Origin: Escherichia coli | Lineage (GTDB): Bacteria > Pseudomonadota > Gammaproteobacteria > Enterobacterales > Enterobacteriaceae | DNA: 64,000 bases | Reading direction: 5' to 3' (one strand) | NCBI RefSeq assembly: GCF_009931435.1 | Contig: NZ_CP043414.1 | Shown: piece by piece, positions 18,001-24,000 of the stretch | Layout: each line of letters starts with the position of its first letter | Numbering within the stretch: the first letter of the stretch is position 1 | Position numbers: made by a program

Positions 18001-21000
18001 CGCGTCAATGTCGAGACAGAAGCCCAGCAGCACGAGTCTTCACGCACCAATGGCGGTGCGCTGATCAAGACTATCAATATTCGCGTTGAGAACCCTAACC
18101 TGCATGATTTAGCCATTAAAGATGTACCGATTCTCAACGGGGACAAAATTATCTGTTCGCGTCTGAAACGAGAAGAAACCCTAAAAGTACCTTCGCCAGA
18201 TACTATTATCCAACTGGGCGATTTGCTGCATCTGGTGGGGCAGCCAGCGGATTTACATAATGCGCAACTGGTGATTGGTCAGGAGGTCGATACCTCGCTG
18301 TCCACGAAAGGCACTGATTTACGCGTCGAGCGTGTGGTGGTCACCAATGAAAACGTGCTTGGTAAGCGTATTCGCGATCTGCACTTTAAAGAACGCTATG
18401 ACGTTGTTATCTCGCGTCTGAACCGTGCCGGGGTCGAACTGGTCGCCAGTGGTGATATCAGCCTGCAGTTCGGCGATATCCTCAACCTGGTGGGGCGTCC
18501 GTCCGCAATTGATGCCGTTGCCAATGTGCTGGGGAATGCGCAGCAGAAACTGCAACAGGTTCAGATGCTGCCGGTGTTTATTGGTATCGGGCTTGGCGTA
18601 TTGTTAGGTTCTATTCCCGTCTTTGTGCCGGGATTCCCGGCGGCGTTGAAACTGGGACTGGCGGGCGGCCCGCTGATTATGGCGTTGATCCTCGGGCGTA
18701 TCGGCAGTATCGGTAAGCTGTACTGGTTTATGCCGCCAAGCGCCAACCTCGCGCTGCGGGAGCTGGGGATCGTACTGTTCCTCTCGGTAGTGGGGCTGAA
18801 ATCCGGTGGGGATTTTGTAAATACCCTGGTCAATGGCGAAGGGCTAAGCTGGATTGGATATGGTGCCCTGATCACCGCCGTTCCGCTGATTACTGTTGGT
18901 ATTCTGGCGCGGATGTTAGCCAAAATGAATTACCTGACCATGTGCGGAATGCTGGCTGGCTCCATGACCGATCCTCCGGCGCTGGCATTTGCTAATAATC
19001 TTCATCCAACCAGCGGTGCGGCGGCACTCTCTTATGCCACTGTCTATCCGTTGGTGATGTTCCTGCGCATTATCACCCCACAATTACTGGCGGTGCTCTT
19101 TTGGAGTATCGGTTAACTCTTTTCCGGGTGGAGTCGCCGTAAATGGTACTCCACCTGGTATTCACTGGCATTTCTGAACATCACTGAATAATTCAAAAAC
19201 TCACCGCTCTCACTATATGACAACGAGGTGATCCGCAGCAGTGGTGTGTGTTCCGCTACCTTCATTTGCCGCGCCAGCAGTCTATCGGCGAGAACCGGCG
19301 TCAGGCTTTCATAATTACCGCCAATAAGAATCCCGCACTCTTGTTCAATATATTCAAACTTCGACCCTTCCAGATGTTGCAGCGAAAGGTTGCGGAACAG
19401 TTTTACCGGCATATAGCTATCTTCCAGCATCAGCGGTTTCCCTTCCACAAAACGAACGCGACGGGAGAAGTAGATCTGCTCGTTGATTTGAATCCGTAAT
19501 TGGCTGGCAATGGCCGGAGGCGCAGGCATGATTTCAAATATTAGCACCTGGCTGGTGACTGTTTTCCCCTGGCGTTTTAACACCTCCACCAGCCCGGTCA
19601 GGCTGGCAGTTTGATGCAGTACATCTTTGCGCACCAGATAAGTACCGCTGCCGTGGCGGCGGACCACCAACCCCCACGCCACCAGCAGGTCAATGGCTTT
19701 ACGGATGGTCATCCGTGATACCGCAAATTCTTCCGCCAGCTTTTTTTCACCGGGAAGAAGACTGTTTAGCGTGAAATCCGCGGAGTTAAGTCGAATTCTT
19801 AACCGCTCCGCAATGCTTTTGTAGATCATCTCTAGATCTCTTTTTTGCCTGCAAGCCCGGGTAAAGCGCCCACAAATTTCGATTAATCCGTTGAAAAAGC
19901 ATCTTTTTTTTAGTGATGTGTTTGATGCTGTGTACCCGTGTTCACAGATGTCTACTTTTTCGCGAAAACGTAGATCTCTACCGCTCAACGAAAAGCATGA
20001 AAGCGATCACGAATCCCACTGGGTCGTCATGTTCTGCCGATAGCATCTTCCTATCCTCGCTCCAGGCCTGCCGCATAACCAATCAGGCTTCCTACTTACA
20101 GAATTGAGAAAAGAGGATGTGGAAATGCTCAGTCAAATTCAACGCTTTGGCGGCGCGATGTTCACGCCAGTGCTGCTGTTTCCCTTCGCCGGGATTGTGG
20201 TGGGTCTTGCCATCTTGCTGCAAAACCCGATGTTTGTCGGGGAATCACTGACCGATCCGAACAGTTTGTTCGCGCAAATCGTACACATTATTGAAGAGGG
20301 CGGTTGGACGGTATTCCGTAATATGCCGCTGATTTTTGCTGTCGGTTTACCTATTGGCCTTGCTAAGCAAGCGCAGGGGCGTGCTTGTCTGGCGGTGATG
20401 GTGAGTTTCCTGACCTGGAACTATTTCATCAACGCGATGGGAATGACCTGGGGAAGCTACTTCGGCGTCGATTTCTCTCAGGACGCGGTGGCAGGTAGCG
20501 GGCTGACCATGATGGCCGGAATTAAAACCCTCGATACCAGCATTATCGGCGCAATTATCATTTCCGGCATTGTGACAGCGTTGCATAACCGTCTGTTCGA
20601 TAAAAAACTGCCGGTGTTTCTCGGCATTTTCCAGGGGACGTCTTATGTGGTGATTATCGCCTTCCTGGTGATGATCCCCTGCGCCTGGCTGACTTTGCTC
20701 GGCTGGCCAAAAGTACAAATGGGAATTGAATCTCTGCAAGCGTTCCTGCGTTCGGCGGGTGCGCTTGGGGTGTGGGTTTACACCTTCCTCGAACGCATTC
20801 TGATCCCAACCGGTTTACACCACTTCATCTACGGACCGTTTATCTTTGGTCCGGCAGCTGTTGAAGGCGGCATTCAGATGTACTGGGCGCAGCATCTGCA
20901 AGAGTTCAGTTTGAGCGCCGAGCTGCTGAAATCGTTGTTCCCGGAAGGCGGTTTTGCCCTGCACGGTAACTCAAAAATCTTTGGTGCCGTGGGCATTTCT

Positions 21001-24000
21001 TTAGCGATGTACTTCACTGCTGCACCGGAAAATCGGGTAAAAGTGGCGGGCTTGCTGATCCCTGCAACCTTAACCGCCATGCTGGTGGGAATTACCGAAC
21101 CGCTGGAATTTACCTTCCTGTTCATTTCACCGTTGCTGTTTGCGGTACACGCCGTGCTGGCGGCCTCAATGTCGACTGTGATGTATCTCTTTGGTGTGGT
21201 GGGCAACATGGGCGGTGGTCTGATAGACCAGGTTTTACCGCAAAACTGGATCCCGATGTTCAGCAAACATGCGGATATGATGCTGACCCAAATCGCCATT
21301 GGGTTGTGCTTTACCCTCTTGTACTTCGTTGTCTTCCGCACCCTGATTCTGCAATTCAACATGTGCACACCGGGGCGTGAAGATGCGGAGGTGAAGCTCT
21401 ACTCGAAAGCCGAATACAAAGCCTCACGAGGCCAAACTACCGCTGCAGAGCCCAAAAAAGAGCTGGAGCAGGCTGCCGGCATCCTGCAAGCCCTGGGCGG
21501 GGTGGGCAATATCTCCAGTATTAACAATTGCGCGACGCGTCTACGTATTGCACTGCATGACATGTCACAAACGCTGGATGACGAAGTCTTTAAAAAGCTG
21601 GGAGCGCATGGCGTCTTCCGTAGTGGTGATGCCATTCAGGTGATCATTGGTTTGCATGTTTCCCAGCTGCGTGAACAGCTCGATAGCTTAATTAATTCTC
21701 ATCAATTAGCAGAAAAAGTTGCCATTACGGAGGCAGTATAATGACCAAATTCTCAGTGGTTGTCGCAGGCGGTGGAAGCACCTTTACGCCAGGCATCGTG
21801 TTGATGTTATTGGCGAATCAGGATCGTTTCCCGCTTCGCGCACTGAAATTTTATGATAACGATGGCGCACGGCAGGAAGTGATTGCCGAAGCCTGTAAAG
21901 TTATTCTTAAAGAGAAAGCGCCGGACATTGAGTTTAGCTACACCACCGATCCTGAAGTGGCGTTCAGCGACGTTGATTTTGTCATGGCGCACATTCGTGT
22001 CGGCAAATATCCGATGCGCGAACTGGATGAAAAAATACCGCTGCGCCACGGCGTTGTCGGTCAGGAAACTTGCGGACCCGGCGGAATAGCGTACGGCATG
22101 CGATCTATCGGTGGCGTCCTGGAACTGGTGGATTATATGGAAAAATATTCACCAAATGCCTGGATGCTCAACTACTCCAACCCGGCAGCAATTGTGGCAG
22201 AAGCCACACGTCGTCTGCGTCCGAACGCGAAAATCCTCAACATCTGTGACATGCCAATCGGTATTGAAAGTCGGATGGCGCAAATTGTTGGGCTGCAAGA
22301 TCGCAAACAGATGCGCGTGCGCTACTACGGCCTGAACCACTTTGGCTGGTGGACATCAATTGAAGATTTGCAAGGCAACGACCTGATGCCCCAGCTGCGG
22401 CAATATGTCTCAAAGCACGGTTATGTTCCACCGCAGCAAGATACGCATACCGAAGCGAGCTGGAACGACACCTATGCAAAAGCGCGGGATGTACAGGCAC
22501 TGGACCCGGATACATTGCCGAACACCTATCTGAAATATTATCTCTTCCCGGATTATGTCGTTCAGCATTCCAACCCTGAACATACCCGCGCGAATGAGGT
22601 GATGGAACATCGCGAGAAACAGGTTTTCGATGCTTGCCGCGCCATTACGGCGGCAGGAAATTCAGCGGCGGGCAAGCTGGAAATTGACGAACATGCGTCA
22701 TACATCGTCGATCTGGCGGCGGCAATTGCCTTCAACACTCAGGAGCGGATGTTGCTGATTGTGCCTAACAACGGGGCAATTCATAACTTTGATGATGAAG
22801 CGATGGTCGAGATCCCGTGTCTGGTCGGGCACAACGGACCAGAACCACTGGTGGTCGGCGATATCCCGCAGTTTCAGAAAGGGTTAATGAGTCAGCAAGT
22901 GGCGGTGGAAAAACTGGTCGTGGACGCCTGGGAACAGCGTTCATATCAGCACCTGTGGCAGGCGATTACGTTGTCGAAAACGGTACCGAGCGCCTCGGTC
23001 GCCAAAGCTATTCTGGATGAGTTGCTGGAGGCCAACAAAGCGTACTGGCCAGAGTTACGTTAATTGTGTGGACTGGCATCCGTTGGGTGCTGGTCCGTAT
23101 TCTTCAGCACGGCTGACGGCGCATAACCAAATTTATGCTTAAAGGCTTTGCTGAAATGAAAGGAGTCGAAGAAGTTGAGTGTATCAGCGACTTCGCCAAC
23201 CGAGTTCCCTTGTTGCTTTAATAGCGATAGCGCCAGATCCAGACGCGCATCGAGGTAATATTCTTTGGGCGTCTTGCCGGTATAGCGTAAAAACAGACGA
23301 CGCAACCAGGCTTCGCTACAGGGGATCGTGGCAGCCATATCGGCTACGCTCCAGCGTTGTTGCAGACTGGCATGTAAAGTGGCAATTAGTTTTTCAATTT
23401 GCCGCCGTTGTGGATCTTTTTTACCGTCTGAGTACATAAGACAAATCCACTGATAAATAATTTTCGTCAGAAAAGCGACTGCCAGATTATTTTTTATTGC
23501 TTCTGGTGAAGTAATTAATTCAGCAACTTCGGTGAGTTCCTGATTATAAACTTCGCCATTATAAATAACGCTTTGCTGACCGACGGGAATATCCATCATA
23601 CTGGTGGGGGTAAATTCCATCCAGTACTGTTCCCAGACTAAACCTTCACAGTGATAAGAGTGAATATCCATTGGCTTTAAAAATATAATACAGTTGCCAT
23701 GCAGTGTTATTTGTTCACCATTCTTTAAAATAATTTTCCCACATCCTTGTACGGTATACACCGCAACCCATGAGTTGGCGATAAGCGGTTTCTTCTTGTC
23801 CCGCGGCCAGATCACCCGATAATGCTCGTCGGCGTAGGTATGCCAGAGCGAGATCAGAGAAATTCCGCTGGAGATCACATTTTCGTTAATCAATAAGGGA
23901 ATATTGTACGGAGTTTCGTTTTTTACATCCGAACTTTGCAATTTTCCATTCATTTTAATATCCCTCCGGCGAATTATGCTCACAACCTGAACTTAACAGA

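Follow-up and report, generated by a model that had tools for sequence, protein, structure and literature searches.

The first 64 kb of an Escherichia coli chromosome (RefSeq assembly GCF_009931435.1, contig NZ_CP043414.1; 64,000 nucleotides starting at dnaA, hereafter the window) carries an uninterrupted form of the glv operon, which is damaged in K-12. Its two genes, glvCB and glvA, are intact and carry the motifs of their families, and sequence comparison places them as orthologues of AglA and AglB, that is, the EIICB permease of an alpha-glucoside phosphotransferase system (PTS) and a 6-phospho-alpha-glucosidase of glycoside hydrolase family 4 (GH4). We consider it highly probable that they encode an ancestral enterobacterial alpha-glucoside catabolic module at the ibpAB-yidE/yidL locus, with the mode of action proposed below. 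The operon is an ordinary, already annotated and already known ancestral cluster, both exact proteins being present in NCBI. A preliminary description made from the sequence of the window had singled out this operon; its observation is confirmed by the present analysis, and its interpretation was essentially right.

Organization of the glv locus

From dnaA the gene order in the window is dnaN, recF, gyrB and then ibpB, yidE, yidP, the glvCB-glvA pair, yidL, yidK and yidJ. The central part of the locus contains the following features.

19113-19829, minus strand: yidP, regulator of the GntR/HutC family, 238 amino acids, divergent from glvCB-glvA
19830-20124, no strand assigned: yidP-glvCB intergenic control region, a 295-bp spacer in which all elements are putative
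20125-21741, plus strand: glvCB (aglA-like), alpha-glucoside PTS EIICB, ATG at 20125 and TAA at 21739-21741, 538 amino acids by open reading frame (ORF) listing and translation
21741-23063, plus strand: glvA (aglB-like), GH4 6-phospho-alpha-glucosidase, ATG at 21741 and TAA at 23061-23063, 440 amino acids
22334-22841, plus strand: segment of glvA deleted in K-12, 508 bp, breakpoints from blastn and sequence inspection

Both ORFs were examined for internal stops and frameshifts in the ORF listing and in translation and none was seen, in agreement with the intact operon reported earlier. The EIICB is indeed encoded by a single uninterrupted ORF, with a length of 538 amino acids, the 539 given previously having included the stop codon; the GH4 enzyme of 440 amino acids is full-length, as had been stated. 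The stop codon of glvCB and the start codon of glvA share one base (TAATG), and a Shine-Dalgarno sequence (GAGGA or GGAGG) lies 7 nt 5' of each ATG, an arrangement which indicates that the two genes would be read from one transcript with translation coupled through the overlap. At the other end, the 3' end of glvA overlaps by four bases that of the convergent AraC-family gene yidL.

Permease and hydrolase

In an NCBIfam profile search the EIICB matched TIGR02005 (alpha-glucoside PTS IIBC; 953 bits, cut-off 607.3), residues 2-523 lying on model positions 1-524, and TIGR00826 (EIIB_glc; 107.7 bits, cut-off 45.75); it fell below the cut-offs of the PtsG, NagE and MalX models. Proteins bearing the name alpha-glucoside-specific IIBC, from Enterobacter and elsewhere, share 80-81% identity with it, and its exact sequence is already public (WP_161399965.1). 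Over its whole length the protein could be aligned with structures of E. coli PtsG, which places two motifs in register.

21088-21099, plus strand: GITE motif of EIIC, residues 322-325, opposite GITEPIEF of E. coli PtsG
21529-21531, plus strand: codon of Cys469 in NNCATRLR (residues 467-474), opposite DACITRLR of PtsG

The second of these is the EIIB motif already recognised in the preliminary description. GITE is kept in all orthologues aligned except a deletion variant from Escherichia albertii, whose EIICB homologue is without 25 residues including GITE (alignment columns 318-342).

The GlvA protein contains the Pfam domains PF02056 (residues 6-184, E = 2.6e-66) and PF11975 (residues 195-415, E = 8.9e-56). 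It aligned without gaps to the Klebsiella pneumoniae 6-phospho-alpha-glucosidase 6DUX (89.7% identity, 920 bits, E = 2e-276); the match to the 6-phospho-beta-glucosidase 1S6Y reached 215 bits, about four times lower, and those to alpha-glucosidase AglA-type enzymes at most 55 bits. The preliminary description had suggested an alignment to Bacillus subtilis GlvA (1U8X), which gave 73.2% identity (753 bits, E = 1e-225) with the GGGS, CDMP and His positions in register. The best of these matches, like that of the EIICB to TIGR02005, goes far beyond what chance would give. By these scores GlvA resembles characterised phospho-alpha-glucosidases more than it does phospho-beta-glucosidases or GH4 enzymes of other specificity. 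An NCBIfam search with GlvA returned only sub-threshold matches, to alpha-galactosidase and AglA models, and there seems to be no NCBIfam equivalog model for this group. The following residues were located.

GlvA residues 10-13, plus strand: GGGS, NAD+-binding glycine motif (GxGS), the same in 6DUX and 1U8X
22245-22250, plus strand: codons of Cys169-Asp170 of the CDMP motif, in register with B. subtilis GlvA at a constant offset of +2
22338-22340, plus strand: codon of His200, in register with B. subtilis GlvA at the same constant offset of +2

Tyr263 is also present. In B. subtilis GlvA, Cys171 and His202 reportedly act as Mn2+ ligands and Asp172 as the adjacent catalytic residue, a result attributed to Rajan et al. 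in 2004.

Lesions of the K-12 operon

The K-12 genes glvC, glvB and glvG (b3683-b3681) lie at this same locus, likewise flanked by yidP and yidL, and their DNA is about 96-97% identical to that of the window. The preliminary description held that glvC and glvB are split and glvG truncated in K-12, and this was borne out both by the flags in an MG1655-derived RefSeq genome, where an 'internal stop' is recorded for the EIICB gene and the GH4 gene is tagged 'frameshifted', and by alignment, which rules out equally intact genes in K-12 by revealing two lesions there. The first is a CAG to TAG change at codon 369 of the EIICB (Gln369; window 21229-21231), which results in separate GlvC and GlvB. 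The second is an out-of-frame deletion of 508 bp in glvG, directly after the His200 codon, whose ends correspond to 8-bp direct repeats GAACCACT at 22334-22341 and 22842-22849 of the window. The K-12 EIICB also has the replacement P238Q at an invariant residue. Unlike K-12, the window has neither the Gln369 stop, nor P238Q, nor the frameshifting deletion. PMC5309279, citing Reizer 1994 and Thompson, describes the K-12 genes as homologues of aglA/aglB that are cryptic or truncated.

Distribution of the intact form

The survey covered 5,426 complete E. coli genomes. A 3.3-kb glv probe matched 5,418 of them, with at least 80% of the probe covered in 4,267, and a 451-bp probe taken entirely from within the segment deleted in K-12 matched 1,652 (30%), among them E. 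coli B REL606 and O157:H7, with the annotation consistently '6-phospho-alpha-glucosidase'. By subtraction, the K-12-type deletion is present in about 2,600 genomes (48%). The remaining pattern, a match to only the yidL edge of the 3.3-kb probe, was found in 1,151 genomes (21%). In the one such genome inspected, which came from cerebrospinal fluid, yidE is followed directly by yidL and the operon is absent; among the edge-only genomes listed, 5 of 7 came from human samples and one was named ST131. Absence of the operon in part of E. coli fits a table of Touchon et al. 2009 (PMC2617782), in which glvC is among the genes differing in presence between E. coli strain groups.

Both ORFs were open in all 13 of the full-length loci inspected. 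A nonsense codon in the EIICB gene was found only in the K-12-derived genome, and five of five non-K-12 deletion genomes had an open 538-amino acid EIICB. About 48% of complete E. coli genomes are without a working hydrolase, yet the sampled non-K-12 ones keep the permease ORF open. Another enterobacterial genus has the order ibpA-ibpB-yidE-GntR-EIICB-GH4 at the same place in the chromosome; in Mangrovibacter the GntR-EIICB-GH4 triad is also present, at another site. This wide occurrence in E. coli, together with the same gene order in other genera, makes the intact arrangement the ancestral and ordinary one and K-12 the derived, damaged state. Intactness is not peculiar to the window strain, about 30% of complete E. 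coli genomes having kept it.

The 538-amino acid EIICB and the 440-amino acid hydrolase fall in one 90%-identity cluster of 8,565 members, probably bridged by a fused or read-through gene call, and the size of that cluster is unusable as a count of either protein. Immediately downstream of glvA in strain E308, an IS200/IS605 tnpA pseudogene and TnpB/InsQ replace most of yidL and yidK-yidI, leaving a 75-bp remnant of yidL; strain M171-1 has the same remnant and a tnpA pseudogene, where the sequence examined ends.

YidP and the control region

In NCBIfam, YidP matched GntR/HutC-type models best, across residues 3-233, without reaching the equivalog cut-off of any of them. A 76%-identical orthologue carries PF00392 and PF07702 (GntR winged-helix and UTRA), and a GntR and UTRA gene of 238/240 amino acids lies in the same divergent position beside EIICB-GH4 in two other genera. 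The YidP protein is 100% identical to that of K-12, at a DNA divergence of about 4%. YidP is probably a local regulator acting on the divergent promoter region of the operon. Candidate elements in and next to this region are the following.

19833-19841, no strand assigned: second TAGATCTCT box (direct repeat), candidate from the repeat search
19946-19979, no strand assigned: 34-bp palindrome AGATGTCTAC-N-GTAGATCTCT, candidate operator from the inverted-repeat search
19996-20011, no strand assigned: CRP-like CATGAAAGCGATCACG, candidate
20052-20057, no strand assigned: -10-like TATCCT, candidate
20113-20117, plus strand: Shine-Dalgarno sequence GAGGA of glvCB, 7 nt before the ATG

In a four-sequence alignment spanning three genera, GTC..N..GTAGA, an ATCAC core and TAT.CT are kept. 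The CRP-like intergenic candidates at 19931-19946 and 19996-20011 are singled out by this cross-genus conservation only, the CRP consensus having 217 matches in the window against 227 expected, which is no enrichment. The GTAGAYCT half-site was found 3 times where 1.7 were expected, a non-significant difference, and terminator-like matches in 19000-24200 lay inside coding regions at the chance rate. Neither the palindrome, the repeated box, the CRP-like site nor the -10-like hexamer is statistically distinguishable from chance within the window, and they are offered as hypotheses only.

Proposed mode of action and substrates

In the proposed mechanism, EI and HPr would pass phosphate from phosphoenolpyruvate to EIIA-Glc (Crr, encoded elsewhere), which would in turn phosphorylate the EIIB residue Cys469. 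The EIIC domain would import the alpha-glucoside, to be released phosphorylated at O-6 of the glucosyl moiety, and GlvA would cleave the 6-phospho-alpha-glucoside by NAD+/Mn2+-dependent oxidation-elimination-addition, yielding glucose-6-phosphate and the aglycone. The substrates, the dependence on Crr and the regulation are those predicted by analogy with related systems.

The preliminary description had noted the lack of an EIIA gene in the operon and had concluded that a trans-acting EIIA would be needed. Both statements are upheld: no EIIA domain was found in the operon, its neighbours are GntR and AraC regulator genes, and the EIICB ends 15 residues past the IIBC model, with no fused EIIA. 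A tblastn search of the whole window with an E. coli Crr sequence as query gave E = 2 at best. With none encoded in cis, EIIA-Glc (Crr) is the expected phosphoryl donor by the precedent of AglA, which interacts with E. coli EIIA-Glc according to work cited in PMC5309279. In that paper's own experiment, isomaltose did not support growth of an E. coli crr mutant carrying B. subtilis glvA/glvC (PMC5309279, as data not shown).

By the same kind of comparison, the expected substrates are methyl-alpha-glucoside, isomaltose and sucrose isomers. PMC5309279 cites work in which AglA and AglB together let E. coli K-12 grow on these compounds, and states that AglA/AglB and B. subtilis GlvC/GlvA act on alpha-glucosides, with maltose as a substrate in Bacillus. 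The alpha-glucosides named in the preliminary description fit the close homologues; its 'arbutin-like' substrates do not, arbutin being a beta-glucoside and the term a legacy annotation error.

Selection on the operon was assessed against REL606, from which the window differs by a synonymous divergence (dS) of 0.13-0.15. For the EIICB the ratio of nonsynonymous to synonymous divergence (dN/dS) is 0.042, and for GlvA it is 0.023; the corresponding pooled polymorphism ratio (pN/pS) among full-length alleles is 0.03. Both genes are under purifying selection.

Expression and alternative explanations

We lean, if only slightly, towards expression of the operon in the window strain. Several points weigh against this and against a catabolic role as proposed. 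The operon has been repeatedly damaged or lost, in about 70% of E. coli genomes, which makes it dispensable in many niches, and the expected substrates are extrapolated from relatives sharing 80-90% identity. A sigma-70 consensus scan of 19000-24200 found no promoter in the yidP-glvCB spacer, the scan being a simple and uninformative one. Furthermore, REL606, in which both the glvCB and the glvA ORFs are open, scored -/-/-/-/- in Biolog PM2 on alpha-methyl-D-glucoside, maltitol, palatinose and turanose (PMC6150544 S6 Table). As this example illustrates, open reading frames do not guarantee an alpha-glucoside phenotype.

These observations would also be expected if the ORFs were intact in a cryptic operon, silent or non-inducible like bgl, asc and chb/cel and conferring no alpha-glucoside phenotype without an activating mutation, a serious possibility if not the one we expect to prove right. 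BL21(DE3) is called negative as well (PMC6150544 S6 Table). According to PMC5309279, alpha-methyl-glucoside enters via PtsG and a phospho-alpha-glucosidase alone has been reported to be enough for growth. GlvA alone should thus allow growth on this compound, and the negative result suggests that GlvA is not made in REL606. The absence of a consensus promoter in the intergenic region and the frequent loss of the operon in E. coli speak for the same explanation. Identification tables reportedly also give E. coli as non-fermenting for alpha-methyl-glucoside. REL606 is, however, no clean functional test, because its yidP has a deletion of approximately 79 bp and its EIICB carries L320P (beside GITE) and G357S at conserved positions. 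Moreover, the dN/dS of 0.02-0.04 argues for use of the operon in nature, as does the EIICB WP_000952127.1, which is identical in nine of nine sampled mainstream genomes with yidP and glvA intact. The literature yielded nothing usable on alpha-glucoside phenotypes of O157:H7 or of further strains in which the locus is intact, and the main texts of two papers comparing E. coli B with K-12 contain no mention of glv or alpha-glucosides.

A functional system with another physiological substrate, such as a diet- or host-derived alpha-glucoside missed by standard tests, is decidedly unlikely. The EIICB is only 80-81% identical to orthologues of the Enterobacter/Klebsiella group, and both REL606 and E. 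albertii are negative on standard substrates, the latter for palatinose, alpha-methyl-glucoside and turanose (PMC9145129). On the other hand, the hydrolase aligns without gaps to K. pneumoniae AglB at 89.7% identity, and both negative organisms carry damaged components, so that their negativity needs no new substrate. Inactivation of intact-looking genes by missense changes private to the lineage is exceedingly improbable: L267 and K381 of the EIICB are private to the window, all other sampled E. coli alleles having P267 and N381, but neither column is conserved across orthologues (P, S or L at 267; N, H or K at 381), and the exact GlvA sequence occurs on 524 public contigs. A specific concern that P267L harms the EIICB was dropped on the same variation of that column.

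The alleles of the EIICB that accompany the 508-bp deletion of glvA carry M199T, G167D or P238Q (in K-12, P238Q and Q369*). A frameshifting deletion of about 79 bp in yidP is common to REL606, EC24 and 2024CK-00474, and the accompanying EIICB alleles carry L320P and G357S (REL606, EC24) or N66T (2024CK-00474). All five distinct alleles with a broken partner are altered at a position that never or hardly ever varies across genera, and none of the three from intact loci is, in a comparison made on a small sample with no phylogenetic correction. One might propose from these sequences that yidP-glvCB-glvA is a co-dependent unit, in which loss of either partner would be followed by inactivation or gradual decay of the EIICB, a doubtful proposal at present. 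If it were correct, one reading would be selection against build-up of non-metabolisable sugar phosphate or against a deregulated permease. An alternative, suggested because REL606 with its broken yidP is negative rather than derepressed, is that YidP is an activator rather than a repressor.

The window strain is among the roughly 30% of E. coli with a complete alpha-glucoside PTS and phospho-alpha-glucosidase module. The significance of this beyond correct annotation is small, the damage in K-12 having been recognised since the 1990s and being already in the RefSeq annotation. Sugars that intact strains might use include isomaltulose (palatinose), isomaltose and further sucrose isomers, or maltitol, all now common as food ingredients; if so, the operon could be relevant for gut ecology or for industrial fermentation of starch hydrolysates, although the single set of phenotypes published for a strain with both ORFs open, that of REL606, is negative.

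Other features of the window

The dnaA-gyrB stretch (window 1-6000) shares only about 97% identity with mainstream E. coli; identities of at least 99% were seen with just 17 of the 5,426 complete genomes. The best match of the glv region (19900-23200) is strain 2013C-4282, at 98.7%. The window comes from a divergent E. coli lineage, which may be of the cryptic-clade type.

An island of virulence-type genes lies beside nepI at 48041-63953, with the following members.

48041-52453: IatC-type inverse autotransporter adhesin
52450-57717: ORF of 1,755 amino acids with immunoglobulin (Ig) repeats, overlapping the adhesin ORF by 4 nt
57769-59466, minus strand: regulator of the EilA/HilA family
59669-61018, minus strand: SipD/IpaD-like tip protein
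61062-62213, minus strand: ORF without family match
62226-63953, minus strand: SipB-like protein

The two overlapping adhesin ORFs may represent either a single split gene or separate genes. Between about 51650 and 55500, near-identical sequence recurs every 291 bp (for example at 51658, 51949, 52240 and 52821 through 54858), a period that corresponds to tandem 97-amino acid Ig-like repeats across the junction of both adhesin ORFs. In its make-up the island is similar to the eip/eilA/air island, related to ETT2, that enteroaggregative E. coli carries.

Comparison with known systems

The closest counterpart of the glv operon is the K. pneumoniae AglA/AglB system (6DUX, 6DVV), in which an EIICB without EIIA is likewise followed by a GH4 enzyme of 440 amino acids and in which the hydrolase shows the gapless 89.7% identity given above. 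The TIGR02005 family of AglA is shared as well; the identity of about 80% is to named orthologues, mostly from Enterobacter, no K. pneumoniae AglA having been compared. In loci orthologous to the window operon a GntR/UTRA gene is located divergently upstream, as it is here. Unlike the K. pneumoniae system, the E. coli locus is polymorphic (intact, with the 508-bp deletion, or absent), and the activity of the E. coli proteins is a predicted one.

In B. subtilis, GlvA (MalA; 1U8X), GlvC (MalP) and GlvR form a more distant relative, with a hydrolase 73.2% identical to that of the window and an EIICB partner that also lacks EIIA. The gene order there is different (glvA-glvR-glvC), maltose is the established substrate, and the regulator GlvR is of the RpiR type, not GntR/HutC as in the window.

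The bgl, asc and chb/cel operons of E. coli likewise combine a PTS with a phospho-glycosidase, and are intact yet silent in many strains. They differ from glv in acting on beta-glucosides, in their GH1 enzymes (with the GH4 enzyme ChbF in chb) and in having other regulators. Given the REL606 data, they are a possible behavioural analogue of glv.

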